Shown here in pieces: positions 35 to 28,748 of a DNA stretch of 35,535 bases (its first letter is position 1; every line of letters starts with the position of its first letter). The translations under genes were made by a program, and so were the position numbers. Source of the DNA: a virus (Duplodnaviria; Heunggongvirae; Uroviricota; Caudoviricetes). The DNA lies in IMG/VR virus record IMGVR_UViG_2872152978_000002. One strand, 5' to 3'. The notes under the pieces are model-generated. The model had not been told where the DNA came from. It saw only the letters and a program-made list of their open reading frames with translations, and did not search any database.

Positions 35-84
35 TTAGAAACCGATCACATACAGCTGCATTTATTAAGGTTATCATCCGTTTC
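35..84 (+). promoter_or_regulatory. Putative cyaR promoter with CRP-like site
   Basis: TTAGA-N6-TCACA (35..50) resembles a CRP site (TGTGA-N6-TCACA); -10-like TATCAT at 72..77, about 7 bp upstream of the inferred cyaR 5' end. CyaR is known to be CRP-activated; exact positions are inference. Confidence 0.4.
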
Positions 85-171
85 GCTGAAAAACATAACC
101 CATAAAATGCTAGCTGTACCAGGAACCACCTCCTTAGCCTGTGTAATCTCCCTTACACGGGCTTATTTTTT
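85..171 (+). ncRNA. cyaR: CyaR (RyeE) small regulatory RNA
   Basis: Sequence GCTGAAAAACATAACCCATAAAATGCTAGC... matches my memory of E. coli CyaR. It ends in an intrinsic terminator (stem GCCTGTGTAA / TTACACGGGC, then a T-run) whose 3' half is the P2 att core. Confidence 0.8.
145..171. repeat. Prophage att core, ogr-proximal copy (27 bp)
   Basis: AATCTCCCTTACACGGGCTTATTTTTT is the reverse complement of the P2 attP core as I recall it; repeated at 34572..34599. Confidence 0.85.
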
Positions 172-235
172 ACGTACAACAAATTGAAATAAAAGGATTT
201 ATTTCTGGTCACGTCCACACATTGACCACATCGAC

Positions 236-262
236 AAAAAAAGCCCCTCGACTGAGGGGCTT
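236..262 (-). terminator. Intrinsic terminator downstream of ogr
   Basis: On the minus strand, GC-rich hairpin GCCCCTC-AGTC-GAGGGGC followed by TTTTTTT, immediately 3' of the ogr stop. Confidence 0.6.
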
Positions 263-273
263 CCTGTTTCTAA

Positions 274-492
274 TTACATCCACATAATTTGCTGCCCTGA
301 CGGCAACGGGTGCGGCCTTACTGCGTGGACTTCTCCCGGCTTCACGATGTATCTCTGTACCGACTCATAAGTGATGAACGTGGCGCTGCAATTCACGTTC
401 TGACACTGGTGATAACGCTCTTTTGTCGTGTCAGTGATATAGCGACTTGTACGCGCATGTGCGGCATGCTGGCATAAAGGACAATGAAACAT
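274..492 (-). CDS. ogr: Ogr late-gene transcription activator (C4 zinc finger), 72 aa
   Basis: Translation MFHCPLCQHAAHARTSRYITDTTKERYHQCQNVNC... matches P2 Ogr; start trimmed to the MFHC Met inside the 100-aa ORF in the track. Confidence 0.9.
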   Translation of the reverse strand: MFHCPLCQHAAHARTSRYITDTTKERYHQCQNVNCSATFITYESVQRYIVKPGEVHAVRPHPLPSGQQIMWM

Positions 493-572
493 CGCGAGCA
501 CCTCTTCCGGTTTTGTTGATGGTGCCATTTTAGTTAATTTACCCTTATAAAACAAACAGATAAAACAAAACA

Positions 573-1736
573 TCACTCATCATCTTCTGTTTCGTACTCC
601 ACATCAGAAAGCCTGACCTCAAGCTCTAAGGACGTCGTGAAGCCGCTATTATTCAGAAAATGTGTCACCTTAGTGATTGTCCAGTCCTGCTCGTCTATGA
701 CGCGCTTAAAGCCTGATACTTTGACCGGCGTTTCCGTGTAAATATCTGCCCGACCAGTAGCCAGACTGATGGAAAACTCCGCAACGCCCCGTTGCAGCTT
801 ATCCCACTTCGCCTGAGCGGCGCGCATGGCCTGCGCTTTCGTGGCATATACCGTGGTCAGGGCAAAAACGTTGTCAGCCTCACCTGCCATGTATTCACCT
901 TCGCGCGCTTCCGGTACTTTTGGCGTTTTCTTCTGCGTGACCGGTTTCGCTTTCGGGTGCTCCAGTGCGCGCAGGTGTTTCTCTTTCTTTTTGCGTTTCA
1001 GTTTTACCTTCTGCTTTTGTGGCTTCGGGTCTTTGGTGTGTAACCACTTTGCTGTTACGCCGGTATAGGCTCCACGGTCAGCAATCGCAAAATGATGGCG
1101 GTCGCCGTCGCTGCGGGTTATGGTGACCTGCGGGATTTTTTTACCACTGGCCGTCACCCCCTGCCCCGCTTTGAGAAACAACAGTTTTCCCATTTTTACC
1201 GAGACCTCACCGCCGTTGCGTTCTGCAAGACGGGTCAGGAATTTCGCATCAGACTCCTGCGACTGGTCGATGTGCGGGATTTTAATTCCGGCCAGTGACG
1301 GAGCGACACTGGCTTCCAGCCTGTTACGGGAGGCTATCGCCTCAACAATCGCACCGAGCGTGGTGTCATGCCAGGAGCCTTCACGGCGGGAATTGAGCGT
1401 CCCGCGGAAATCTGCACTCCGGGCGCGGATGGTGACCACATCCGGCGCGCCCCGGTGTTCAACCTCATCAACGGTGAATTTCCCTTTGCATACCAGGGCA
1501 AAACCTTTCCAGCCGATATACACCGTCAGGACAGCGCCACGAACCGGCAGCCCGACCTGCCCGTCGGCATCGTTCAGTTCAATATCAAGCTGGTCAGCCT
1601 CAAAGCCCCGGTTATCCGTCAGGGTCATGCTCATCAGACGGTCGCTGATATTGCCGGTAATATCCCTGCTGTCGAGCATCAGCATGTAATCCGGCGTCAG
1701 CGTACTACCTGCATCAAATGTCAGCGCGTCCAGCAT
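573..1736 (-). CDS. D: Tail protein D (late control/tail formation), 387 aa
   Basis: 387-aa ORF in the P2 gpD position (between U and ogr), same length as P2 D. Confidence 0.85.
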   Translation of the reverse strand: MLDALTFDAGSTLTPDYMLMLDSRDITGNISDRLMSMTLTDNRGFEADQLDIELNDADGQVGLPVRGAVLTVYIGWKGFALVCKGKFTVDEVEHRGAPDVVTIRARSADFRGTLNSRREGSWHDTTLGAIVEAIASRNRLEASVAPSLAGIKIPHIDQSQESDAKFLTRLAERNGGEVSVKMGKLLFLKAGQGVTASGKKIPQVTITRSDGDRHHFAIADRGAYTGVTAKWLHTKDPKPQKQKVKLKRKKKEKHLRALEHPKAKPVTQKKTPKVPEAREGEYMAGEADNVFALTTVYATKAQAMRAAQAKWDKLQRGVAEFSISLATGRADIYTETPVKVSGFKRVIDEQDWTITKVTHFLNNSGFTTSLELEVRLSDVEYETEDDE

Positions 1737-2215
1737 TATCCCGCCCCCGTCATACCCGTGAATTTAGTCGCCATACTGCCAGCCTTACCGATGAGCGATT
1801 CCGCCTGTTTACCGATATCGCCATAAAGCGCGGCCAGTGATTCATCCACGCGGGTGAGCGACAACGTAAAATCAATTTTCCGGGGTGTGCCGTCTGCAAA
1901 GAAAATACTCCCTGTTTCACTCACCCTGCTGATGACATACATGCCGTAAATCATGCCGGTGCCATCCAGCAACGGCCACGCCCGGCCTTCCTCTGCCATC
2001 AGCCTGAGCGTGGTCATCGTCAGCTTCCCGCCGGTCAGTTCGGGATAAAGCACGCCGGCAAGCGTCATGTTTTCCTCACCCACACCGAGAAACTGAAAGG
2101 CATCCCGTTTACCGATACGGGGATTTGACGGCCAGCGATAATCTGATTCGCGCTGCATGGTCTGGTGTGGCAGCGTCTGGCGCATAAAAACAAACATACC
2201 TAACGCGAGCATCAT
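1736..2215 (-). CDS. U: Tail protein U, 159 aa
   Basis: 159-aa ORF directly downstream of T, overlapping the D start; length and position as P2 gpU. Confidence 0.85.
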   Translation of the reverse strand: MMLALGMFVFMRQTLPHQTMQRESDYRWPSNPRIGKRDAFQFLGVGEENMTLAGVLYPELTGGKLTMTTLRLMAEEGRAWPLLDGTGMIYGMYVISRVSETGSIFFADGTPRKIDFTLSLTRVDESLAALYGDIGKQAESLIGKAGSMATKFTGMTGAG

Positions 2216-2229
2216 TTTTCGTCACCTCC

Positions 2230-4677
2230 TTAACCGTCATGCATCATGCTGGCACGGGCGCGCGCACGTTTATCCCGCTCGTATTTTTCGAGCGCATCCT
2301 GTAACTGGCGGTCAGGCTGTGTCCCCGGCGCAGTACCACCCGTCAGGCTGATGTGATATTCGTTTTTACTCTGGTCCACATAAGAGCGGCCAGCCGGTGC
2401 CGTAACCGGCTGATAAGCCTGATAGCCTGCATAAGAGCTGGTCGCCGGAATATAACCACCGGTGCCATACGTGGCGGCATTAGTCCTTGCGGCGGTCTGG
2501 TCAAGTGTGTCTGACTCTTTGTTAATAACACCGAGTTTTTCCAGTACCCAGTCAATACCACTGCGCAGTTTGTTGAACGCATTAAGCGGCAGCATCAACG
2601 CGTCAGCCAGTGCCTGCCCGAACATGACGCCCGTGTCACGGCAACGGTTCAGGGTGTCCTGTGTGGCTTTAACCGGGGCAATCAGGTTTTTAAACCACTG
2701 CCACGCGGCCTGTAACTTTTCGCCCAGCCAGTCAAACACCGGCTTAAGTGGCGTGAACAGTTCCCCCACCGGCGCAAATGCCGCTTTCAGCCCTTCCACC
2801 ACACCGCCAAAGAATGCGCTGACAGGCTCCCAGTATTTACGGATAAGCAACGCCCCGGCGACAATGGCGGCCACCACGGCCACAACCGGCCAGCTAATCG
2901 CTCCAATGGCGGTCATAACAGCACTGCCAACCGTCGTGAAGATTGCCCCCATTGCGCCTGCTGCCGCGATGATGGCATTGATGCCGGTGATAACCGGCCA
3001 GGCTACGAGGCCAATGGCACCGATGACACCAATCATTGCCAGTGCACCACCGACAATGATGCCGATGGTTGACGCCAGTGATTTGTTTTTCTGGATCCAG
3101 CCGTCGAGTTTTAACACATACTTTGTGGCCGTCTGCGTGAGCTTACGCAGTGCGCCTTCCTGCTGGTCAAACAGGTCAGTCCCCACCGCCTCATAAGCGG
3201 ACTGAAACTCCTTAAAGTCACCGCCGAGGTTGTCCTGCATGATATTTACCAGCTCTGCGGTCTTTCCGTCTGAGGCTTTAAACGCAGCGGTCAGTTTGTC
3301 CAGCTTTCCGGTTGAGGCGGCAGTCATCAGCACGGCGGCGGCTGAACTGGCCTCCTCCCCGAAAATGGTTTTCATGTATTCAGCCTGCTGGGCAGTACCG
3401 AGCCGGTTTTTCTCAAAACTGGCCTGCATTTCTTTCAGAATGGTAAATACTGGTCGGGTGTTTCCCTTACTGTCTGAGGTTTTCACACCAAGCTCTTTGA
3501 GTGCATCCCATGCTTTTCCCGTCGGTGCCTGCAGGCGGCTTAACACGGCACGGCTTCCCGTTCCCGCCATTGAGCCTGTGATTTTTGCATCATGCAGCGC
3601 CCCGACCATTGCGGCGGTTTCTTCAATGCTGACACCGGCATTTTTTGCCACAGGTGCGGCATAGGTCAGCGCATCGCTCATGCCGTCAAAATCGGCGGCG
3701 GTTTTGTTCATCGTCATGGAGAGAACATCCCCGATATGAGCGACCTTATCGTTTGAAAGCTGAAAGGCGGATTTCATCCCCATCAGCAGGGCGGCGTTTT
3801 CTTCCATCGTGCGACGGTTCGCCAGCGCCATATTCAGCGTGACCGGCGTTGCCGCCTGAATGGCATCAACATCCCCACCGGCTTTCGCAATAATAATCTG
3901 CGCACCAGCTGCATCATCTGCCGAGGCTGCGGTATTGTCGCCGAGCTGACGCGCCTGCTTGCGTAGTGCAGCCATTTCGGCGGAGTCTTTTACCACTCCG
4001 AGCACGGCCTGCAATTCTGAGTTTTTCTGCGCAAACTCATAACCGGGCATCAGCAGCTTAACTCCGGCCATCGTTCCCGCCGCCGCAATCCCCACACCGG
4101 CAGCGCCCACCGAGGCCATATTTCCGGCCAGTTCCTTTCCGGCCTGATAACGCTGTTTTACTGCGTTAAGTTTTGCCTGTTGTGCACTGACACGCGCCAG
4201 CGCGTCGCGCTGACGGTTAAGCTGTGCGGTGGTTTCACTGATACGGTTTTTCAGTCCCTGCTCATCATGTGCAAGATTGCGGGTATTAATTCCCACAGCG
4301 GCCAGTTCCCGCTGCTGGCGTTTAACGGAATCTGTCAGGCGGTTATATTTCGCCTGTAAGTCCTCCGCCGCACGCTTTGCGGATTCCAGCACTTTCGCCT
4401 GAGCACGGGTCGGACGTTCGGTGTTTTTAAACTGTGTGGCAAGGGCTTCGGCCTCCTGCCGTGCCTTTTCAAGTGCATGACCAGTCACGGCGAGCTGTGC
4501 ACTGGTCTTGCGGAATCCCTCAATACGGGATGCCTGACCGTTCAGCTCGCGCAGTGATTTTTGTGTTTCCCGGATATCCCCCGACAGCGATTTGCTCGCT
4601 GTGCGGATGGATTTAAACGGGCGGGATGCCTGGTCAACAGCCCTGAGCAATACCTGTAATTTTACATTGTTACTCAT
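2230..4677 (-). CDS. T: Tail tape measure protein T, 815 aa
   Basis: 815-aa Ala/Gly-rich coiled-coil protein with a hydrophobic central segment, directly downstream of E/E'; same length as P2 gpT. Confidence 0.9.
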   Translation of the reverse strand: MSNNVKLQVLLRAVDQASRPFKSIRTASKSLSGDIRETQKSLRELNGQASRIEGFRKTSAQLAVTGHALEKARQEAEALATQFKNTERPTRAQAKVLESAKRAAEDLQAKYNRLTDSVKRQQRELAAVGINTRNLAHDEQGLKNRISETTAQLNRQRDALARVSAQQAKLNAVKQRYQAGKELAGNMASVGAAGVGIAAAGTMAGVKLLMPGYEFAQKNSELQAVLGVVKDSAEMAALRKQARQLGDNTAASADDAAGAQIIIAKAGGDVDAIQAATPVTLNMALANRRTMEENAALLMGMKSAFQLSNDKVAHIGDVLSMTMNKTAADFDGMSDALTYAAPVAKNAGVSIEETAAMVGALHDAKITGSMAGTGSRAVLSRLQAPTGKAWDALKELGVKTSDSKGNTRPVFTILKEMQASFEKNRLGTAQQAEYMKTIFGEEASSAAAVLMTAASTGKLDKLTAAFKASDGKTAELVNIMQDNLGGDFKEFQSAYEAVGTDLFDQQEGALRKLTQTATKYVLKLDGWIQKNKSLASTIGIIVGGALAMIGVIGAIGLVAWPVITGINAIIAAAGAMGAIFTTVGSAVMTAIGAISWPVVAVVAAIVAGALLIRKYWEPVSAFFGGVVEGLKAAFAPVGELFTPLKPVFDWLGEKLQAAWQWFKNLIAPVKATQDTLNRCRDTGVMFGQALADALMLPLNAFNKLRSGIDWVLEKLGVINKESDTLDQTAARTNAATYGTGGYIPATSSYAGYQAYQPVTAPAGRSYVDQSKNEYHISLTGGTAPGTQPDRQLQDALEKYERDKRARARASMMHDG

Positions 4678-5154: not shown

Positions 5155-5673
5155 TCACAGGCCGATATTGCGGCGGTGTTGCTCCAGCCGGTCGACGCCG
5201 TTCACCTTCTCAATCATGTTGATGGTGTCGATTTCGACCAGCTCCTTACCGTCCATCGTCAGCCGGAAATAGGTGCAGACCACGGAGATTTTCGACTCGG
5301 TGTCTTCTCCCTGTTTACCCTCGCCGGTGTCGATTTCTTTCTGACGTCCACGCATGACCACCTCGACGGCCACCGTTTCGCCGGTATCGTCGCGCTGGTA
5401 AGAGCCTGCAAAACGAATCGGCACGGCATCCACACCGGTTGCGGCGTAAAGCTCCCAGATAACCGAATCCGGGAAGCCCCCGAGCGACCACTCCATTGAC
5501 AGCGCATCGTCATCAAGGCCGAGGTCTACCGGTGCGCTGCCGTTCATCCCCGCACCTCGATAGTTTTCGAGCTTACGGGTCAGTTTTGGCAGCGTGACGG
5601 ACTTTGCAACGCCCTGATAGCTGTAGCCGTTCAGAAAGACGTTCATTAACTTGAGTTTGCGCGGCATTGCCAT
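5155..5673 (-). CDS. FII: Tail tube protein FII, 172 aa
   Basis: 172-aa ORF between FI and E; P2 gpFII length and position. Confidence 0.88.
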   Translation of the reverse strand: MAMPRKLKLMNVFLNGYSYQGVAKSVTLPKLTRKLENYRGAGMNGSAPVDLGLDDDALSMEWSLGGFPDSVIWELYAATGVDAVPIRFAGSYQRDDTGETVAVEVVMRGRQKEIDTGEGKQGEDTESKISVVCTYFRLTMDGKELVEIDTINMIEKVNGVDRLEQHRRNIGL

Positions 5674-5685
5674 CGGTCAGGCTCC

Positions 5686-6876
5686 TTAATTGCTGTTAAC
5701 CGAGGTGACCAGATTTGCCAGGTATTTATCGGTGATACGCTGGCGCAGGGTCAGGTTTTCAAGAGGAGGCACCGGGGTATAGTCGTAGTCGATATACAGT
5801 TTTCCGGCCTTGAGGGTTTCCGCATCGTTGGATTCTTCGCTAAACCAGCAGGTCGCATCCACGATATAGCCGTTTGTTTTCAGCTCACGGAATTTGGCAT
5901 TGATGCCGTCAACGATGTCACGAATCAGCGTTGCGGTGATGGGCTTGTCCACCGCCCACATGTGCGCCTCAGCCATCGTGTCGGCCAGTACCTGTGCGGT
6001 GCGGGTGTAGTTTTCAAAGAGGAACAGCGGGTCATCAGAGCAGGTACGGTTACCCCAGAAGCGGAAACCGTCACGGCGAATCAGTGTTGTGACGCCTGAC
6101 TCGTTAAGCAGGTCAGCATCGGTGCCGGACTCCTGCAAATCCCAGAATACAGATGCGCTGATGCCGGTAACACCGTTCACCCCGACGTTGGACAGCGTTT
6201 TATGCCAGCCCTGCTCCTGGTCGATTTTGGCACGCAGACCCAGCGCACGGGCGGTAGCATACGCGGTGGCGGTGGTACTGGTGACCGTATCCCATGCGAG
6301 GAAATCCGGCCAGATGACCATCAGCTCACGCTGGCTGAAATTCTGGCGGTAAGCTTTCACCTCGGAAATGGTTTTACAGCCCCATGCGCTGATATACCCG
6401 AAAGCGCGCAACTTCTGACAGACTGATGCCAGTGCAACAGCCACCTCTTTGGTATCCAGTCCCGGTACGCCGAGAATACGCGGTTTAACACCGGTTACCG
6501 ACTCCGCCGCCAGCAGGGCTTTCAGTCCGGTGTACTGACCGTTTTCGTCGGTGGTGCCGATGATATTGGAAACGGTCTGCGCGAGTTTCGTTTCTTCGTC
6601 GTCGCCGGTGCCGTCTTCCACGCGCACAACAACGGTGACCGGTTTTGACTGGTCAGCGATGGCCTGCAACGATGCCGCCAGCGTGCCTTTTTTACCGGCC
6701 TTTGCAATTGCGCTCTGCACATTGGTAATCAGCACCGGTTTATTGAGGGGGAAGGTTTCCGCATCCGCATCGCTGGCCGTGCAGACCATGCCGACAATGG
6801 CGGTGGATACGGTTGAAATGACGCGGGTGCCGTCGTTAATCTCCAGCACCTGCACGCCGTGATGATAGTCACTCAT
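5686..6876 (-). CDS. FI: Contractile tail sheath protein FI, 396 aa
   Basis: 396-aa ORF, P2 gpFI length and position, first gene of the FI-FII-E-T-U-D block. Confidence 0.9.
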   Translation of the reverse strand: MSDYHHGVQVLEINDGTRVISTVSTAIVGMVCTASDADAETFPLNKPVLITNVQSAIAKAGKKGTLAASLQAIADQSKPVTVVVRVEDGTGDDEETKLAQTVSNIIGTTDENGQYTGLKALLAAESVTGVKPRILGVPGLDTKEVAVALASVCQKLRAFGYISAWGCKTISEVKAYRQNFSQRELMVIWPDFLAWDTVTSTTATAYATARALGLRAKIDQEQGWHKTLSNVGVNGVTGISASVFWDLQESGTDADLLNESGVTTLIRRDGFRFWGNRTCSDDPLFLFENYTRTAQVLADTMAEAHMWAVDKPITATLIRDIVDGINAKFRELKTNGYIVDATCWFSEESNDAETLKAGKLYIDYDYTPVPPLENLTLRQRITDKYLANLVTSVNSN

Positions 6877-6971: not shown

Positions 6972-6999
6972 TACAGAAAAGGCGGGCAATTCGCCCGCC
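6972..6999 (-). terminator. Hairpin with T-run (minus strand) upstream of FI, left edge of the cargo island
   Basis: GGCGGGC-AATTC-GCCCGCC stem-loop at 6981..6999, followed on the minus strand by TTTTCTGT. Probably the backbone terminator that separates the tail-fibre operon region from the FI late promoter. Confidence 0.4.
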
Positions 7000-7063
7000 T
7001 GTCCTAGTTTGTACTCACTCATTTTCCGACTGACAATTTACATAGCCAAAACGCTATCAAATC

Positions 7064-7096
7064 TGACAGTCTGCTTTGAGCGAAAAGCAGACTGTC
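7064..7096. repeat. Perfect 14-bp-stem inverted repeat upstream of the HNH gene
   Basis: TGACAGTCTGCTTT-GAGCG-AAAGCAGACTGTCA; no clear T-run on either side, so it could be an operator or RNA structure rather than a terminator. A degenerate copy lies at 8077..8115. Confidence 0.7.
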
Positions 7097-7212
7097 ACGC
7101 GTTGAAGTTAATTGTATTACTTAGATAAACACTATCATTTTCCTGACGTTAAGTTGTATCTTTGATAGGATTAAAAAACGTATAGATAGCTTATGCTACT
7201 GAGGGAATAAAA

Positions 7213-8022
7213 ATGACGAAAATTAGTGAACGATGGAAGCACAATGGCATTACTGAAGGTTATTGCAATATTTGTGGGAAATATGGCTTGCTCACAAAAG
7301 ATCATGTTCCTCCAAAGTGCGCCATAACCTTAGGCCCTGTTTTGCAGAAAACAGTTAGCGAATTTTTTGGTATTCAGGAACCAGTTAAACCATTAAATGC
7401 TAAAAATGGCTCTTATTTCAGAACCATTTGCAGCCACTGTAACAATAAGGTATTAGGTGGGCTCGATGTTGCAATTGAAAATGTAACAAAGTCCTTTAAA
7501 GAACAGTTAAGTCGATATATGAATGGTATGAATGTATATCCATTCATTAGAATACCTTTTGATAGCATATCTTTCACTAAGGCTATGATTGGGCACGTGC
7601 TATCAGCAACTTCAGTTGAAGATTGTAAAAAAGAACCCGTAGATAGCCCCTTCTATACACCTTTAAAGGATTATGTTTTGGGTAAAAATTCAAGTTTTGA
7701 GGAAACTCATGATATTTACTACTGGTTTTACCCACACAGAATGCACATATCCGCTCAAAGTGTAGCATTTATGAACGAAGGACATGTGGCATTTATTTGT
7801 GCTTTACATTTTTTTCCTATCGGTTTTATTATCACAATGAAAAATGAAGGAACATACCCTGCCCACTCTACAAAATTAGAACTTGAAGATAAATTCCTTA
7901 CATTTAATATGACCTCTATAAATTATGAGTATACGACATTTCCATTTGTAAATCTTAAGGGAAACCAAATGTATGCGATAAGCAACGGTCATACTTGTGT
8001 GAGTTATCCAATAATTAAGTGA
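7213..8022 (+). CDS. HNH-motif nuclease-like protein with an unknown C-terminal domain, 269 aa
   Basis: N-terminus carries C-x2-C (CNIC), DHVPPK, a conserved Asn and C-x2-C-N-x-K (CSHCNNK), the spacing typical of zinc-bound HNH endonucleases. GAGGGA Shine-Dalgarno before the ATG. About 35% GC, unlike the P2 backbone. C-terminal ~190 aa has no motif I recognise. Confidence 0.75.
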   Translation: MTKISERWKHNGITEGYCNICGKYGLLTKDHVPPKCAITLGPVLQKTVSEFFGIQEPVKPLNAKNGSYFRTICSHCNNKVLGGLDVAIENVTKSFKEQLSRYMNGMNVYPFIRIPFDSISFTKAMIGHVLSATSVEDCKKEPVDSPFYTPLKDYVLGKNSSFEETHDIYYWFYPHRMHISAQSVAFMNEGHVAFICALHFFPIGFIITMKNEGTYPAHSTKLELEDKFLTFNMTSINYEYTTFPFVNLKGNQMYAISNGHTCVSYPIIK

Positions 8023-8162
8023 CGGCTAAATCATACAATCTACGCATGTTCACTTTCTACATATACCATCTATAATGTCCGCTGTTGGCACAAAGCAGAC
8101 GCCCACTCTCACGCGAATGCTTTGCCCTTGACTTGCCAACAACCGTATCGCTTGCTCCGCAA

Positions 8163-9440
8163 CTATGGTTTTTTATTAGAATCTTCGCCACTAAATAAAT
8201 TATAATAAATTGATTTTATTAGATATCTGTCAGAATCTATATGGTCAGCACGAGTAGCATGCTCTAATGTTTCAAATGCTAGGGTTTGTGCGGCTTCAGC
8301 AAAAATTCCAGGCCAACCCTTACTCAGCATCGACAGTCCTTTAAGGACCCTTATCTGAATTTCCCTCATACTGGCACCATCGCGCGCAACAGGTGAGAAA
8401 AAGTCTTCAAGTAGATCGTTATTCTGAAGTGGTGCAACATGTACAGAAGGATATTTCACTTCTATTTCATCAGATTTATTCTGCGCGTAAGCGGAAAGTA
8501 TACGTACACCTCTGCCAATGACATCAATGGCGGTTCCAGGATCGTTCACTGCGGGGGAAAGGGCTCGGCAGGCTATTTCGGCCATGACGCTAAGACAAAA
8601 TCGGGGGTCCTGAGCAAATGAACGTACATCCGAGACAATAATCGTCTCAAGTAAATCGGTGCTGATTGATGACTCCTGGCCCTGACTCAGGTACAAAACT
8701 GGCGTGGACGGATGTATGAAACTGCCCGGCTGCGCCACGAGGTATACATGACGGGGATCATTGGTCAGCAGCTTGCTGAGTTTCACCATATCAACATATT
8801 CAACATAGCCAATCTTTTTCGGATAAACTGCAACCGTTCCTTTCGGCTGTTCATTGTTCTCAAGCCATGGATATCCGCCGAGACAGGGATTTCTTGCTCT
8901 CGCAATAAATGTTTCGATGGCCGCCTGTTCTACTTTTGCCGTTGTCTCACCAACCCTCCCCAGAGAGGTCAAATGCTGTATCCAGCGAAGCAATGTGATG
9001 AGGATTAAGGCAATGACAACCAGTGTTACAATGAATAAAATGACTCTCCCCCTTTCTCCATAAGCTCCCATATTGAGGGCAATAATCCCTACCAGACTGA
9101 AGAGAAAAGAACCGATGAAGGTGGCCAGTACATTTTGTGTGGTGACGTCTTCAACAACTAAACGAGTAGCTCTGGGAGTCACATTAGTAGTGGCTGAACC
9201 GTAGGCTGTGACCATGATGCTCAGCGAAAATGTGGTCACTGCCAGCATACTCGATGCCAGTATGTTCAGAATGTTATCGACTGCTTCCGCACCAACCTTC
9301 ACGGAAACCGACTCAGGTATCATTGATTTAAAAAGAATTGATAAAAGGGCCGTTATTATTGCGACAATTGCGAATAACGTTGCCCTGAACCATAGTTTTT
9401 TAAATGTCTGCTTCAGCATCCATTTCCAGCGTGAAATCAT
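8163..9440 (-). CDS. Membrane protein with four N-terminal TM helices and a ~250-aa soluble domain (DUF2254-like, from memory)
   Basis: Four hydrophobic segments in the first ~160 aa. Start placed at the Met preceded by GAGGGA (the track ORF starts 15 nt upstream, inside the terminator T-run). Family assignment is from recollection only. Confidence 0.55.
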   Translation of the reverse strand: MISRWKWMLKQTFKKLWFRATLFAIVAIITALLSILFKSMIPESVSVKVGAEAVDNILNILASSMLAVTTFSLSIMVTAYGSATTNVTPRATRLVVEDVTTQNVLATFIGSFLFSLVGIIALNMGAYGERGRVILFIVTLVVIALILITLLRWIQHLTSLGRVGETTAKVEQAAIETFIARARNPCLGGYPWLENNEQPKGTVAVYPKKIGYVEYVDMVKLSKLLTNDPRHVYLVAQPGSFIHPSTPVLYLSQGQESSISTDLLETIIVSDVRSFAQDPRFCLSVMAEIACRALSPAVNDPGTAIDVIGRGVRILSAYAQNKSDEIEVKYPSVHVAPLQNNDLLEDFFSPVARDGASMREIQIRVLKGLSMLSKGWPGIFAEAAQTLAFETLEHATRADHIDSDRYLIKSIYYNLFSGEDSNKKP

Positions 9441-9461
9441 TCTGCATTCCCTCATATTGCA

Positions 9462-9492
9462 GCCGGGATAAATAAATGCCGCCTCTGTGGCG
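9462..9492 (-). terminator. Intrinsic terminator between the BCCT transporter gene and the downstream membrane protein gene
   Basis: ATGCCGCC-TCTGT-GGCGGCAT hairpin followed on the minus strand by TTTATTTATC, 12 nt after the transporter stop codon. Confidence 0.55.
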
Positions 9493-9503
9493 GCATGTTG
9501 CTG

Positions 9504-11507
9504 TTAACGAACCAGATGCAGGAAGTGCAGGTGTTTTTCGTACTGGTCCAGTATGTCATTAATCAGCTGTTCCTGATTCCAGCCCATTACATCATAATTT
9601 TGGCCGCCCTCTTTGAGATAGACTTCAGCGCGATAATATCGATGTTGTTCACTCTGCTGCTCATCATTATCCAGCGCAGCGAGCGCGAAGGTCGGTGAGT
9701 TATACCCGCGAAGCCTCACTTCATATATATAATTCAGCTCGTTGCCCAAATCGACTTCAAGGCGAATACGATCCTCGGCGGCGTCACTGATGTGGCTTAT
9801 CGTTCCCTGCTTGTTAAGTTCCTCCTGAACCAGCGTCATGGCGGGTTGGATAATGTCGTCCATAAAACGTTTCACAAGAGAGCGCTTCGGCAAATACGCG
9901 ATATTGCGTAACCTTCTCTGCCAGGGAATTGGGTTACGTGCAGCCGTAGGAGCAATAGTCGCCATGCTAAGGCTTTCACGCTTGGTCAAATCCCGACGCA
10001 GGGCTTTTAACAGTCCGTATATGGATATTAATAAGATAACTGAGAAGGGCAATGCACTCGCTATCGTTACGGTTTGCAACGCACTCAGCCCCCCTGCGAT
10101 CAGCAGGGCAATAGCAACAACGCCCATGAGCAATGCCCAGAAAATTCGCTGCCAGACGGGCGTGTTTGCCACCCCACCTGATGCCAGAGTATCCACAACC
10201 ATTGCCCCCGAATCAGCAGACGTTACAAAGAAGACGATGACCATCGCCATTGCAATGAATGACAGCACGGAAGAGAACGGGAAATGCTCCAGGAAATTAA
10301 ACAGGGCAAGCGCAACATCCTGCTGAACGGTATTGGCGAGGTCAGTGGCGCCCTGGTTCATGATGAGATAGATGGCGCTGTTTCCAAACACCGTCATCCA
10401 CATGAGCGTAAAGCCGGCGGGAACAAACAACACGCCAGTCACGAACTCACGAATTGTCCTGCCGCGGGAAACGCGTGCAATGAACATACCTACAAACGGC
10501 GACCATGAAAGCCACCATCCCCAGTATAATAATGTCCAGCCCCCCAGCCAGTTGCTCGACTTGGGTTCATACGCGTAAAGGTTGAACGTTTTACTCACCA
10601 GTTCCGACAGATAACCACCCGTATTTTCCACAAATGACTTCAGCAGAAGCACAGTGGGACCCAGGCACAAGACCAGCGCCAGGAGCAACACCGCCAGGCC
10701 CAGATTAAGCTCAGACAGGATGCGTATTCCCTTGTCCAGGCCGGACACCACCGAAATCGTCGCTAACCCCGTGATGACCACGATCAAAATGACCTGTACC
10801 GTTTCATTGATGGGCACGCCGAAAAGATGGTTCAAACCGGCATTCACCTGCAATACACCGTAACCCAGCGATGTTGCAACGCCAAAGACAGTGCCTATCA
10901 CGGCGAAGATATCAACCGCGTGGCCTATAGGCCCGTAAATGCGATCGCCGATAATGGGATAGAGCGCAGAACGCAGCGTTAAAGGCAGACCGTGACGGTA
11001 ACTGAAAAAGGCCAGAATCAGCGCCACGATGGCATAAATTGCCCATGCGTGCAGACCCCAGTGGAAGAACGTCAGGCGCATGGCTTCCTTCGCTGCCGCA
11101 ACGGTCTCTGGAGTGCCGACAGGTGGCGAAAGATAATGCATCACAGGTTCGGCAACGCCAAAGAACATCAGGCCGATCCCCATCCCTGCCGAAAAAAGCA
11201 TCGCGAACCAGGAGTGGTAGCTGAAATCAGGCTGCGCATGGTCTGGGCCCAGCTTTATATCACCGTAACGTGAGAGTCCAAGGAACGTGACGCTCAGTAA
11301 AATCAGGGCCACAGCAAGTATGTAGAACCAGCTGGCATTCGTGAAGATTTGTTGCTGAAGTAGTTTAAAATTTTTGTCGGCGACATCCGGGAATACGGCG
11401 GCAAAGGCGACAAGAAGGAAAATTAGCAAAGCAGATGTAAAGAATACCGCTTTGTTAACCTGGCTTGTAGACTTCTTTGGGGTTGTATCATTTTCACTCA
11501 TAATCAT
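9504..11507 (-). CDS. BCCT-family transporter, BetT-like (choline/betaine type), 667 aa
   Basis: BCCT signature GWTLLYWGWWLSWSPFVGMFIARVSRGRTIREF; overall collinear with E. coli BetT as I recall it, including the C-terminal ...DILDQYEKHLHFLHL tail. Confidence 0.85.
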   Translation of the reverse strand: MIMSENDTTPKKSTSQVNKAVFFTSALLIFLLVAFAAVFPDVADKNFKLLQQQIFTNASWFYILAVALILLSVTFLGLSRYGDIKLGPDHAQPDFSYHSWFAMLFSAGMGIGLMFFGVAEPVMHYLSPPVGTPETVAAAKEAMRLTFFHWGLHAWAIYAIVALILAFFSYRHGLPLTLRSALYPIIGDRIYGPIGHAVDIFAVIGTVFGVATSLGYGVLQVNAGLNHLFGVPINETVQVILIVVITGLATISVVSGLDKGIRILSELNLGLAVLLLALVLCLGPTVLLLKSFVENTGGYLSELVSKTFNLYAYEPKSSNWLGGWTLLYWGWWLSWSPFVGMFIARVSRGRTIREFVTGVLFVPAGFTLMWMTVFGNSAIYLIMNQGATDLANTVQQDVALALFNFLEHFPFSSVLSFIAMAMVIVFFVTSADSGAMVVDTLASGGVANTPVWQRIFWALLMGVVAIALLIAGGLSALQTVTIASALPFSVILLISIYGLLKALRRDLTKRESLSMATIAPTAARNPIPWQRRLRNIAYLPKRSLVKRFMDDIIQPAMTLVQEELNKQGTISHISDAAEDRIRLEVDLGNELNYIYEVRLRGYNSPTFALAALDNDEQQSEQHRYYRAEVYLKEGGQNYDVMGWNQEQLINDILDQYEKHLHFLHLVR

Positions 11508-11822
11508 TTATTCCATTAATTAAATCCGCACTGGATAGAAGGTACTACCTCTCACAGAGTAGCAAAGTTCAACTGGCTATGCGGGATTAATCGGAATGCA
11601 TGGTGGAATGAGTGCCGATACAAATCATCCTATATTCTAAGGAGTTTTAAGTTACTCAGCCTGCCAATTACTGGGGCATTTAATTTGTATGATCTGTATC
11701 AAAGCTGGGATATAAGTTAAGTGAAGTATATTAGGCACGAATTACCAGCGTCTGCTCTTGGCACAGAGCGGACTGTCAGATTAGACTTTACTCTGTGCTA
11801 TAGGTATGTCAGCTCATACAAC

Positions 11823-12350
11823 TTATTGCGGCATTTCCGGCCATTCAGGATTTGCAGGATCCACACGACTGACCAGAACGCTGTAGCGTTCCCATGCTTC
11901 CAGTCGGCTGCGCTCCTCATCTGTTGCCATATTCAGCCTGACAGCGCGCTCCAGCGGCAAAATCACGGATTCAGCTTCGGAAAGTAAAGTTGCCTTTTGT
12001 GATTCTGCCAGTTGCTGCTGTTCGTCTGCCGTATAAATCCGCTTAATCACGGCACCATCCTTAAACATCCATTTACCTGAGTCATCAGCACGTCGGTTGG
12101 CGGTAATATCAGGAACCTCGACAACGCTAAAACCTTCAGGGTTAAGCGTTGAAGCATCTCTGGTGATGCCGACAATTATATTATTCTCGTCGTAAACAAT
12201 CTTTATCGTGTCTTCCTGAAAATTACTTACTTCCTCATACCAGTTTTTTCCGTCTTCAGACCATAACCAGATAACATCAAAATTTTTTGTCAGTTGATAT
12301 TGGGCAACAGTTTTGGGATTACCCGCAGTAATATTTTTTAAATGCTGCAT
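11823..12350 (-). CDS. G: Tail fibre assembly protein G, 175 aa
   Basis: 175-aa ORF directly downstream of H; P2 gpG length and position. Confidence 0.88.
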
Positions 12351-12353
12351 AAA

Positions 12354-14444
12354 TTACACCTGTGCGACGTTATACCATGTGCCATTAATGTATTTTTGTA
12401 TTGGTCTGAATACTGCCGGATCATCGCCATCAACTTCGCCGACAATGCCAAGCCCTGTAATTACATGGCCTGATTTCTCATACATCACGCCTTTTTGCAT
12501 GGTCTGAACAACACGCGTACCCAGGCGAACATCTTTCACATAGCGGGAATCAAAATTTCCGTAATCTGATGGGTTAACACGTCCAGTAACACTCAGGCCA
12601 TGCCCCATTGACACTCCGCCATTGGCGTTATTGATAGTCAGCGGTCTTAAACCGTTCCATGTTCCAAATTTATCGCCAGAGGCCGTCAGCATTAAATATG
12701 TGCTGCCGCCATCATTCCTGATAAAGAATCCATAATTGCCATAAGCAATGCGCAGACCATTAGCACTGAGCGATGTAATTTCACCTCTTGAACGAAGACC
12801 ATAAGCAGAGCTGAGTGATAATTCTTCCTGAGCATCAGTATTACCTGTCGCCCAGCGAATTACCCCGCCCTGTACTGTTTCATGCCAGATAGTGTCTCCT
12901 TCTCCACCACGAAACTTTCTGAGATATTTTTTGCCGCCTCTGGTGCCGGAACATAAGGCCGTAGACATATAGGCATTCTGGCTTCCACTATCCTGATTAA
13001 TAGTTCCAGACATAGAATCGCCGTAACGGTTCCAGTCACGCCGCCAGCCAGGAGCATAGTTGTCCCCGTGGTTAATATAAGTAAATTGCGCGCTTGTAGC
13101 GCCCCCACCGCTTGATGTTGTTGGTGTGGTAATACGAATAGTCATTGCAGACTTTATGCCCATTACCTCAATAACAGCGCCAGCAAGATGAATATTGCCA
13201 CAGCCAGTATCCGTAATGATTTTGTTATTTGCATATGACCAGGAGCCTTTGCACATCCAGTACGGATGATTAAATGCACCACGGGAATCCAGCCATTCAA
13301 TAAACTGAGCGGTTGTCCAGTTTCCGGCTTCAGTGCTCAAAGCGCCGCTATAAGCACGACAGGCACCGATATTTTTCGTGAAGGTATCCTTTCCCGGAAT
13401 ATCCGCACCGTTCTGATCTTTCTGAAGACGTTTTTCAGCATTGTCATAGGCAGACTTCACCGCCTTTGGCGTTGCAGCCTGCGTTTCAGAATCACTGTTG
13501 GTGGCGCTACTGAGCTGGACAAGACCTTTTCGCGCCGTGGTGGCATCCTGTGCAGTGTATTTCCCGTTAGCAAGGTCATATGCTGTCTTAACCGCCTTTG
13601 GCGTTGCCGCAAGCGTTTCAGAATCGCTGTTGGTGGCGCTACTGAGCTGAACAAGGCCTTTTCGCGCTGTTGTGGCATCCTGTGCAGTGTATTTCCCGTT
13701 AGCAAGGTCATATGCTGCCTTTACCGCTTTCGGCGTTGCGGCGAGCGTTTCAGACGTGCTGTTAGTCGCACTACTGAGCTGAACAAGGCCTTTTCGCGCG
13801 GTGGTAGCGTCCTGTGCGGTATATTTCCCGTTAGCAAGGTCATATGCGGCCTTAACCGCTTTCGGAGTTGCAGCCAGTGTTTCAGACGTGCTGTTGGTCG
13901 CACTGCTTAACTGAGTAAAACCTTTTGCGGTCAGCGAGGCGTCAGGGTGACGTCGTGACTGTTCATGTTCTGCAATTTTGTCATCAACGTAATCCTGCGT
14001 TGCCATCACCGTTGTGGTGTCAATGGTCAGCTCCACTGAGGCCACACTGCTGACGATGATGACCATGCGGCAGGTCTGCGAACGCCCTGAGCCTTCGGCA
14101 AGGGCTGGCTTATAACTTTCGGCCATGTTCGCCACGGCAATTAGCGTTCCCGCATCATCGTACAGGCCAAGTTCACGCATCCAGAAACCGCCCACCTCCG
14201 GCGGAATAACCAGCTCTGCGATAATATAATTACTGTTTCGTTTGTCCTGGCTGATTTTGTTCAGCGCATGTCGCCAGACTTCATGGATAAGCCCGGTCTG
14301 TCCGGCATCCGGGACAGGCAATTTACCACCGCCATCCCCGACGGCCATCGTGGTAATGTTGACCTTCCGCCCTCCCGGTGCGGTTGCCGCTGCCAGCTTT
14401 GCTGCACCGGCAGTGGTGATAACGGTTTTGAATTTTGTGCTCAT
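12354..14444 (-). CDS. H: Tail fibre protein H, 696 aa
   Basis: P2 gpH position between I and G; contains four tandem ~40-aa repeats (DATTARKGLVQLSSATNS.SET.AATPKAVK.AYDLANGKYTAQ) and a divergent C-terminal domain. Confidence 0.88.
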   Translation of the reverse strand: MSTKFKTVITTAGAAKLAAATAPGGRKVNITTMAVGDGGGKLPVPDAGQTGLIHEVWRHALNKISQDKRNSNYIIAELVIPPEVGGFWMRELGLYDDAGTLIAVANMAESYKPALAEGSGRSQTCRMVIIVSSVASVELTIDTTTVMATQDYVDDKIAEHEQSRRHPDASLTAKGFTQLSSATNSTSETLAATPKAVKAAYDLANGKYTAQDATTARKGLVQLSSATNSTSETLAATPKAVKAAYDLANGKYTAQDATTARKGLVQLSSATNSDSETLAATPKAVKTAYDLANGKYTAQDATTARKGLVQLSSATNSDSETQAATPKAVKSAYDNAEKRLQKDQNGADIPGKDTFTKNIGACRAYSGALSTEAGNWTTAQFIEWLDSRGAFNHPYWMCKGSWSYANNKIITDTGCGNIHLAGAVIEVMGIKSAMTIRITTPTTSSGGGATSAQFTYINHGDNYAPGWRRDWNRYGDSMSGTINQDSGSQNAYMSTALCSGTRGGKKYLRKFRGGEGDTIWHETVQGGVIRWATGNTDAQEELSLSSAYGLRSRGEITSLSANGLRIAYGNYGFFIRNDGGSTYLMLTASGDKFGTWNGLRPLTINNANGGVSMGHGLSVTGRVNPSDYGNFDSRYVKDVRLGTRVVQTMQKGVMYEKSGHVITGLGIVGEVDGDDPAVFRPIQKYINGTWYNVAQV
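13440..13920. repeat. Four tandem ~120-bp in-frame repeats inside tail fibre gene H
   Basis: Near-identical ~120-bp units visible in the nucleotide sequence; they also generate the spurious antisense ORFs at 13266..13910, 13457..13711 and 13721..13903. Confidence 0.75.
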
Positions 14445-27931: not shown

Positions 27932-28645
27932 TTACACCAAACCCGGGGAATAAGGGCCTCGTGCTAATTCAGGATTAGTCCACATTAAGCAAACTGGGTT
28001 ATCTGAAGTTATAAATGACCCTTGCCCATCAGATATGGTCATAAGTGACCAGTTGCGTTGATGCAACAACTTGGTGATAACAGGTACACATTTCATTTCC
28101 ATATCTATCATGAACTCTCTGATTACATTGATTTCGAAATTATCCCCATCCACAAAATTTTTAATTTTTTCGTAAGCGAGATCATATGGCAAAGACTCAC
28201 CCATTTCTTTCTCATAAGCTAATTTGCAATCGTCCCAACGCTCAGCCGAACTAACTGAGGATTTCATGATAAACTTTGCTATTTGTTTCAATGGAGATGA
28301 TAAATGTTCTCGCTGAGCAGGCGTACGTATTGCCAATAAGGAAATAAACTCCAGAATAACATCTTTGGTTTCGCCTGAAAACTCGCCCCCCTCCTCAAGT
28401 TTTCTTAAATGAGTAGCGACACTGCCTTCAAACTCTGCAAGAGAACTCTCGAGATAGTTTGGGTCAACTCCATCCAATTCTAATCGGTTGAAATCTCTAA
28501 CCCCCCCGACATTGCGAGTATTACTCTCAAAGGTTTTGCGCTCCTTTAAATCTATTACAGTTAATTTTGATTTTTTCCCCCCATTACTTGTAAACCCTTT
28601 CAAATAACATTGGGATAAAAAATGATGATGCCTTGCAACACTCAT
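27932..28645 (-). CDS. DUF4238-like protein at the P2 old/tin moron position, probably truncated by a frameshift
   Basis: Starts MSVARHHHFLSQCYLKGF and contains SDNPV, which I recall as DUF4238 hallmarks. GGAG Shine-Dalgarno 6 nt before the chosen ATG. AT-rich. The reading frame of the downstream 66-aa ORF (27717..27917) is open from 27967, so one indel in the CCCCGGG run would give a ~305-aa product. Confidence 0.65.
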   Translation of the reverse strand: MSVARHHHFLSQCYLKGFTSNGGKKSKLTVIDLKERKTFESNTRNVGGVRDFNRLELDGVDPNYLESSLAEFEGSVATHLRKLEEGGEFSGETKDVILEFISLLAIRTPAQREHLSSPLKQIAKFIMKSSVSSAERWDDCKLAYEKEMGESLPYDLAYEKIKNFVDGDNFEINVIREFMIDMEMKCVPVITKLLHQRNWSLMTISDGQGSFITSDNPVCLMWTNPELARGPYSPGLV

Positions 28646-28748
28646 ACTCAGCTCCGTTATGGCTATAATCGCATAAATAATAAGCACTTATATTGCAATC
28701 ATCTAGTTAAATACACAATATTTATGACTCCGAAATTTCATTAAATCA

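Follow-up and report, generated by a model that had tools for sequence, protein, structure and literature searches.

The 35,535-nucleotide (nt) stretch of viral DNA analysed here over its full length (hereafter, the window) is the IMG/VR record IMGVR_UViG_2872152978_000002 of the Caudoviricetes. As a whole it represents a P2-like prophage with genes for tail sheath and tail tube (5155-6876), tail fibre and fibre assembly (11823-14444), gpA and an integrase. On the minus strand lie two neighbouring genes, the first encoding a transporter of the BCCT family (9504..11507) and the second a membrane protein of the DUF2254 family (8163..9440). The transporter is identified as an allele of BetU, and we consider that betU and DUF2254 probably make up, in this order, a mobile osmoprotection module of two genes (betU-DUF2254).

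The DUF2254 gene is contained in an open reading frame (ORF) at 8163..9455 (minus strand), which encodes 430 amino acids (aa) from its first ATG and 425 aa from an in-frame ATG at 9440, five residues further in. We prefer the start at 9440 because the Shine-Dalgarno sequence GAGGGA (9448..9453, minus strand) is located 7 nt 5' of it, because the RefSeq coding sequence comprises 1278 nt, and because the equivalent M-x-S/A-R/K-W forms the start in 15 out of 15 aligned homologues. The GAGGGA is kept among close alleles, and the Klebsiella and Typhi plasmid alleles (loci L088 and L089) have one G fewer (GAGGA). The protein matches Pfam family PF10011 (DUF2254) with an E-value of 1.6e-92 and 310.6 bits versus a cut-off of 28.8, and the match extends over positions 3-366 of the 368-position profile. 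A preliminary description of this locus, made from the sequence letters, had called it DUF2254-like and reported a 425-aa protein with four N-terminal transmembrane helices, both of which are borne out by Pfam, the ORF and hydropathy. At a Kyte-Doolittle threshold of at least 1.6 over 19 residues, four hydrophobic segments appear (residues 23-41, 60-78, 104-122 and 133-151) and none past residue 160. Because the N-terminus is basic, with five K/R and zero D/E residues, the positive-inside rule makes an N-in and C-in topology likely. The helices are followed by a soluble domain of alpha/beta and helical character, for which the AlphaFold2 (AF2) model has a confidence (pLDDT) of 91.3 in the C-terminal domain. 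Its length is about 265 aa (about 250 aa in the preliminary description), and a cytoplasmic location is predicted for it. The protein further contains the invariant motif QDPRF...EIAxRALSPxxNDPGTAI.

The DUF2254 family has thousands of members, and the window gene encodes an inner-membrane protein of this family. A profile search of the PDB sequences gave no match at E ≤1, and structure comparison found no solved structure resembling DUF2254. The literature retrieved on the family comprised only a predicted-knot study and a neighbourhood-based guess from 2012, 'guanosine phosphorylase', neither of which is functional evidence. A truncated 'DUF2254 family protein', as in the E. coli B lineage, is annotated in many clinical isolates, and the database protein P0049 is a DUF2254-TrkH chimera that was probably made by deletion.

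The upstream gene encodes 667 aa from its first ATG, or 665 aa from the RefSeq start two codons further in. Its product covers the complete BCCT profile (PF02028, E 3.3e-199, positions 1-485 of 485), reaches 751.8 bits versus a cut-off of 695 with the NCBIfam model for the BetT subfamily (NF007399) and also exceeds the cut-off of TIGR00842. Compared to the copy on transposon Tn6062 of Salmonella Typhi (S. Typhi), 649 of 665 residues are identical in the transporter (97.6%) and 418 of 425 in DUF2254 (98.4%). Tn6062, located on IncHI1 plasmids of the PST6 type in S. Typhi, has been described to carry 'two putative transporters', SPAP0105 and betU (SPAP0106), and a 3405-bp clone of the two genes enabled S. 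Typhi to grow in 0.8 M NaCl (Holt 2011, PMC3139670). An S. Typhi plasmid in PLSDB has the order IS1-DUF2254-BCCT-IS1 (IS, insertion sequence). Its match spans positions 67-3472 of the query, so that the published clone reaches to about 65 nt 5' of the betU start codon. The gene-specific 3' part of the published primer IS1056-03 is identical in 20 of 20 bases to window positions 8173-8192, inside the end of the DUF2254 gene. Primer IS1056-04 had no match in the window within three mismatches; the region has the core GTAGCAAAGTTCAA by eye, and on this visual comparison we take the mismatch as allelic divergence. Because of the identity to the Tn6062 gene called betU and the primer match, we name the transporter BetU and equate the pair with the two coding sequences of Tn6062.

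According to papers citing Ly et al. (2004), BetU is found in some E. coli strains, among them uropathogenic ones, as a BCCT-type osmolyte transporter specific for betaine. Betaine-specific uptake by the window allele would be carried over from this literature on close alleles. A BetU with a DUF2254 neighbour is already known and annotated as cargo of Tn6062. In the BetU literature covered, which did not include the original 2004 paper, we found no account of the downstream DUF2254 gene. The preliminary description had left open both the function of the membrane protein and any link to the transporter. The former still stands for the role of DUF2254 itself, but the latter does not, as the pair is the tested osmotolerance cargo of Tn6062. 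The window pair shares with Tn6062 the two genes, their order and the hairpin between them. However, Tn6062 is a composite transposon with IS1 at both ends, and the chromosomal betU copies examined are likewise IS-flanked, whereas the window pair has no adjacent IS and instead lies between 24-bp recombination sites in a prophage. In the Typhi copy, IS1 also extends the C-terminus of DUF2254 to 431 aa, compared to 425 aa in the window.

The DUF2254 gene starts 63 nt downstream of the BCCT gene, whose stop codon occupies 9506-9504. Between the two genes, on the minus strand, lies a hairpin with a T-rich tail (9468..9496). The hairpin, ATGCCGCC-ACAGA-GGCGGCAT at 9496-9476, has a stem of 8 bp, six of them G-C, and a 5-nt loop, and is followed by the tail TTATTTAT at 9475-9468. 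The strong hairpin noted in the preliminary description is thus present, but the T-run claimed along with it is interrupted (6 T in 8), so that the element resembles an intrinsic terminator of moderate quality rather than a textbook one. Similarly, the GAGGGA-ATG start reported there was found, but not its distance of about 20 nt: the Shine-Dalgarno sequence lies 14 nt, and the ATG 27 nt, past the end of the T-run. Folding of the whole 91-nt intergenic region is unremarkable (z = -1.5). Nevertheless, a hairpin is found at the equivalent position, roughly 5-10 nt past the BCCT stop codon, in all ten homologous loci examined (10/10), with T-tails that range from T8 in Leclercia and T6 in one metagenome genome to almost none in Pluralibacter. 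Among eight distinct sequences, 91.7% of the stem cells are paired, compared to 36-61% when the partner is slid, and three of nine stem pairs have changed on both sides. Stem conservation is therefore above chance, and the compensatory changes appear to keep the hairpin.

Published RNA-seq on plasmid pBIC1a in E. coli, covering one condition and a 93%-identical copy, gave 54 reads per kilobase per million (RPKM) for BetU and 16 RPKM for the next gene, which is DUF2254 according to the plasmid record. A simple scan of the minus strand at 9456-9700, including the last 200 nt of the BCCT gene, yielded no sigma-70-like site. Of the two explanations that had been offered for the short distance between hairpin and start, attenuated read-through fits better, because the hairpin covaries, its T-tails range from canonical to broken, the scan found no sigma-70-like site and the RPKM values are 54 versus 16; a promoter inside the transporter gene did not find support. 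Our best reading, based on one data set and on sequence, is that partial termination yields less DUF2254 than BetU. Accordingly worded as a mechanism, transcription would start 5' of betU, the conserved hairpin would stop part of it, and DUF2254 would be made by read-through at about one third of the betU mRNA level. The presumed betU promoter would lie in the region 5' of betU inside the cassette (11508..11749, minus strand), a stretch that was 99.9-100% identical and accompanied the cassette in all contexts examined.

Two further elements flank the pair. A promoter-like site (CTGACA, 16-nt spacer, TAAAGT; 11785-11812, minus strand) lies immediately beyond the cassette, in the P2 backbone, and is aimed into betU. 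A strong hairpin of 9 bp, seven of them G-C, with a T-run (6980-7000, minus strand) separates the Z-region repeat from the tail sheath gene FI, and would stop transcription of the cargo region short of the late tail operon. With no terminator-like site detected from gene G to betU, late phage transcription may also read into the cassette. At the E. coli chromosomal allele of HUSEC2011 (locus L086, 7161-7817), a TetR-family regulator follows directly downstream of DUF2254 on the same strand.

The pairing of the BCCT and membrane protein genes is conserved elsewhere, as the preliminary description had proposed to check. Among complete E. coli genomes, 1966 of 5426 (36%) had a match and 1373 held at least 80% of the pair. 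Most of these copies are an about 94%-identical chromosomal allele in an IS-rich island. Among 72,556 plasmid records, 1531 (about 2%) matched, 1266 of them from Klebsiella, and 1470 (96%) held at least 80% of the pair. IMG/VR contained 25 close copies, and the BCCT gene was directly upstream in 24 of the 24 with the upstream flank present. Of 80 loci taken from different species, nine have a BCCT gene as the immediate upstream neighbour in the same orientation, namely those in Kluyvera (3), Serratia, Buttiauxella, a proteobacterial metagenome-assembled genome (MAG), Leclercia, Pluralibacter and an Agrobacterium MAG. In four further loci it lies immediately downstream (Pantoea (2), Aureimonas and an Aurantimonadaceae MAG), where DUF2254 is 48-52% identical to the query. 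The BCCT proteins of the recurring pairs, which extend across Enterobacterales and Rhizobiales, are 48-80% identical. In Leclercia and Pluralibacter, where the genes around the pair differ and comprise no betI, betB or betA, the pair itself is the conserved unit. The same bet-free flanks ruled out that it forms part of a native choline-to-betaine (bet) operon.

The ratio of non-synonymous to synonymous substitution rates (dN/dS) is 0.10-0.15 for DUF2254 and about 0.03 for BetU. These values show that DUF2254 is kept under purifying selection, although less strictly than BetU. The synonymous divergence (dS) between the window genes (8163-11501) and two other alleles is 0.083 (L086) and 0.144 (L088) for DUF2254 compared to 0.329 and 0.368 for betU. 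This two- to four-fold gap suggests recombination between alleles inside the pair.

Pfam families of the genes directly adjacent (+/-1) to DUF2254 homologues, 139 in number, were led by BCCT with nine, MFS with six, NhaA with five, ClC (with CBS) with four, and Na_H_Exchanger and MscS-type channels with three each. By contrast, the control of 119 genes at +/-4 of the same loci was headed by ABC transporters, short-chain dehydrogenases and MarR; the top families listed there comprise none of BCCT, NhaA, ClC, Na_H_Exchanger or MscS, and MFS with two only. Sequence clustering (14 of 74 loci) and Pfam agree in ranking BCCT first among the neighbour families. This pattern supports a role of DUF2254 tied to ion or osmolyte balance at the membrane, whichever its mode of action. 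DUF2254 would then act in the membrane on ion or osmolyte balance beside the transporter, either as a regulatory accessory protein or as a channel-like valve. That it does so in one of these two ways, and not as an enzyme or a defence protein, is the weakest step and should be taken as a tentative suggestion, for which gene neighbourhood and purifying selection form the whole basis.

The pair is also delimited as a discrete cassette. The window contains three 24-bp sites with a 9-6-9 layout, GTCYGCTYT, a 6-bp spacer and ARAGCRGAC. One marks the DUF2254-side boundary (8077..8100, GTCCGCTGT-TGGCAC-AAAGCAGAC) and a direct repeat of it the betU-side boundary (11750..11773, GTCTGCTCT-TGGCAC-AGAGCGGAC); the two are 3673 bp apart and enclose exactly DUF2254 and BCCT. 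The third site (7069..7092, GTCTGCTTT-GAGCGA-AAAGCAGAC) has the opposite orientation to these two, is part of a perfect palindrome (7064-7097) and delimits the Z region on the FI side. Together, the three sites split the P2 Z region of the window into two cassettes. The other cassette holds a 269-aa ORF with two CxxC motifs (7213..8022, plus strand; PHROG 21495, function unassigned), for which no Pfam, NCBIfam or PADLOC match was obtained. In phage pro147 this ORF, annotated as 'putative metal-binding', is the sole Z-region cargo. The G+C content is 34-37% in the cassette of the 269-aa ORF, 41-53% in the betU cassette and about 55% in the FI-side tail genes.

The single site of pro147 consists of the left half of the 8077 site and the right half of the 11750 site, with one differing base in the left arm (GTCCGCTCT instead of GTCCGCTGT). 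Copies of the cassette with 99.9-100% identity are also carried by an IncFII plasmid and by Rac-like prophages, with constant inner half-sites and varying outer half-sites and flanks. Specifically, the right half of the 8077 site with its flank (AGCAGACgcccactctc) travels with the cassette in plasmid, Rac, Kluyvera and Citrobacter, and at the 11750 site the left half with its flank (aattaccagcGTCTGCT) is constant while the right half and flank vary with the host element (P2, IncFII plasmid, Rac). Cassette half-sites were further found in Kluyvera contigs and a Citrobacter plasmid, and a decayed relic lies beside the E. coli chromosomal allele. These hybrid half-sites in pro147, IncFII plasmid and Rac fit a reciprocal crossover within the spacer, a recombination event that we infer from sequence. 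Because the pro147 site is a hybrid of the 8077 left and 11750 right halves, the crossover would involve a circular cassette with one site, and the betU cassette would have entered a pro147-like Z region by a tyrosine-recombinase crossover in the 6-bp spacer.

Of the 25 close copies in IMG/VR, 20 adjoin the Rac marker gene DUF977 and two are located in P2. A second cassette, encoding an MFS transporter, a ChaC-like gamma-glutamylcyclotransferase and a LysR regulator (locus L087, 4151-6932; also L113 and other IMG/VR loci), is a neighbour of the betU cassette in Rac-like prophages and also in a single P2-like contig; one of the two P2 copies in IMG/VR combines the betU cassette with an MFS-ChaC-LysR cassette that also occurs in Rac. 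Because this cassette adjoins the betU cassette, the sites carry metabolic cargo and not defence genes alone. Also among the cassettes are a 200-aa tyrosine recombinase (L002, 10052-10654; L001, 8355-8957), which matches Pfam Phage_integrase and weakly the Xer and DNA-invertase models, and a 476-aa protein without a family (L002, 10795-12225; L001, 6352-7782); the order of the two differs between plasmid and Rac. The recombinase is a candidate mover of the cassettes. The cargo region of the window contains no recombinase gene, and both the 200-aa recombinase and the 476-aa protein are absent from the window.

In the prophage, the three cargo genes (269-aa ORF, DUF2254 and BCCT) are located between the tail-fibre assembly gene G (11823..12350, minus strand; Pfam Caudo_TAP 9.4e-35, RefSeq) and the tail sheath gene FI (5686..6876, minus strand; Pfam Phage_sheath_1, Phage_sheath_1C and Gp18_domIII_N, RefSeq), which form the backbone on either side. 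This corresponds to the P2 Z/fun position. The inverted repeats of the Z region, with arms at 7057-7092 and 11750-11785, show 83% complementarity across 36 nt. The window flank matches the 'proviral Z-region' record of P2-EC58 (AJ512683) up to the annotated inverted repeat, and the 7069-7092 site falls in the 'right inverted repeat' of that record. The position between G and FI and the repeats are thus the same as in P2-EC58. However, the cargo of P2-EC58 is one 232-aa ORF, whereas the window holds two cassettes in an array, one of them an osmoprotection module and not a phage-exclusion gene. At the other variable site of P2 (old/tin position), beside gpA, the window encodes a 251-aa DUF4238 protein (27932-28687, minus strand; Pfam 7.3e-33), and a DUF4238 protein from that hotspot protects against T7 (Rousset et al. 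2022). A literature search on the mechanism of Z-region cassettes yielded citations of Nilsson et al. 2004 but no description. To what we found described, the present analysis adds the location at P2 Z/fun, the precise limits of the cassette with their hybrid sites and the neighbourhood link to ion and osmolyte transporters.

Cargo at a variable site of P2 might be expected to serve in anti-phage defence, and the pair or DUF2254 alone could accordingly be an anti-phage or superinfection-exclusion system. The Z/fun position, the DUF4238 gene of a T7-protective class at the other variable site and the membrane location of DUF2254 would agree with this. Yet PADLOC-DB 2.0 gave no match at E ≤0.1 for DUF2254, BCCT or the 269-aa ORF, which led us to reject a known defence-system identity for any of the three cargo proteins. 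In addition, most copies reside on IS-flanked plasmid or chromosomal segments and not on phages, the tested phenotype of the pair is osmotolerance, the neighbours of homologues are ion and osmolyte transporters instead of defence genes, and the sister cassette in the same sites bears MFS, ChaC and LysR genes. We therefore consider a defence function highly improbable. It is unlikely, though less so, that the hairpin is a full terminator and that DUF2254 forms a separate transcription unit, whose promoter would overlap the hairpin or lie within the 3' part of betU. The canonical T-runs of Leclercia (T8) and of one metagenome genome (T6) and the good Shine-Dalgarno sequence of DUF2254 would suit such an arrangement, but no sigma-70-like site was found at 9456-9700 on the minus strand, the ATG follows the T-run after no more than 27 nt, and in pBIC1a the downstream gene reaches about 30% of betU, as leaky termination predicts. 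A somewhat stronger competitor, though still rather doubtful, is that DUF2254 is a passenger that was captured and moved with betU and has no functional tie to betaine transport. The terminator-like hairpin between the genes would fit a passenger, as would the loss of an intact DUF2254 next to an intact betU in E. coli C41(DE3), the further E. coli genomes with an incomplete pair, the lack of a BCCT neighbour at most homologues elsewhere and a dN/dS three to four times that of betU. Against it, the adjacency recurs in both gene orders and in lineages as distant as Enterobacterales and Rhizobiales, BCCT is the most frequent single neighbour and absent from the top families listed at +/-4, the dN/dS of 0.10-0.15 is that of a gene kept under selection, and the pair is intact in 96% of the plasmid hits.

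Several points also weigh directly against the interpretation of betU-DUF2254 as a functional module. The osmotolerance evidence applies, by analogy with Tn6062, to the pair together and does not separate DUF2254 from betU. BetU was reportedly first isolated by complementation in E. coli K-12, a strain that lacks DUF2254, and probably works alone. Within 8 kb, a BCCT gene is missing from about 60 of the 80 homologue loci. About 590 E. coli genomes match yet hold less than 80% of the pair, and in C41(DE3) (L091, 5003-5341) betU is intact while IS911 cuts DUF2254 after about 113 codons; DUF2254 is thus dispensable for keeping betU. As we found no sequence or structural relative of known function, 'channel or regulator' is without direct support. 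Regarding expression, a simple scan of the cassette 5' of betU revealed no sigma-70-like site, and the RNA-seq ratio, from one condition and a 93%-identical allele, could also be caused by mRNA stability. With these points considered, we still hold the two-gene osmoprotection module to be the probable reading.

A broader reading in two parts can be put forward as a possibility, at present a speculative one. DUF2254 might define a novel class of membrane proteins in osmoregulation, which would cooperate with BCCT and further ion transporters as a channel-like valve or as a sensor-regulator. Independently of this, the 200-aa tyrosine recombinase might constitute, together with the 24-bp sites, an integron-like cassette-exchange network that moves betU-DUF2254, MFS-ChaC-LysR and the 269-aa ORF among P2 Z/fun regions, Rac-like prophages and IncF plasmids. 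Like integron gene cassettes, the units are discrete, have imperfect palindromic sites, would be inserted serially into a fixed position through a tyrosine recombinase and occur as the same cassette in different carriers. In contrast to integrons, the window-type sites have a simple 9-6-9 core and not a folded attC, there is no IntI-type integrase or attI/Pc platform, and the associated recombinase is only 200 aa long and itself located among the cassettes, with recombination deduced from sequence comparison.

The pair is present on the S. Typhi IncHI1 plasmids (Tn6062, PST6) and on many Klebsiella plasmids, including the KPC-2 plasmid pBIC1a, and thereby represents mobile salt tolerance. With its carriage on a P2-like prophage, a phage route is added for spreading this trait, which may help bacteria to persist in urine, the gut or food: a lysogen would gain betaine uptake and salt tolerance by lysogenic conversion. 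The adjacency of DUF2254 to BCCT, NhaA, ClC, Na+/H+ exchangers and MscS offers a testable lead toward osmotic or ionic balance. If the sites are active, the variable sites of P2 and Rac would swap gene modules with plasmids beyond anti-phage genes. An osmoregulatory transporter as prophage cargo is likewise exemplified by trkG, the K+ uptake gene of the Rac prophage, and in many strains the same Rac-like prophage harbours the betU-DUF2254 cassette. However, trkG is a single gene without a partner.

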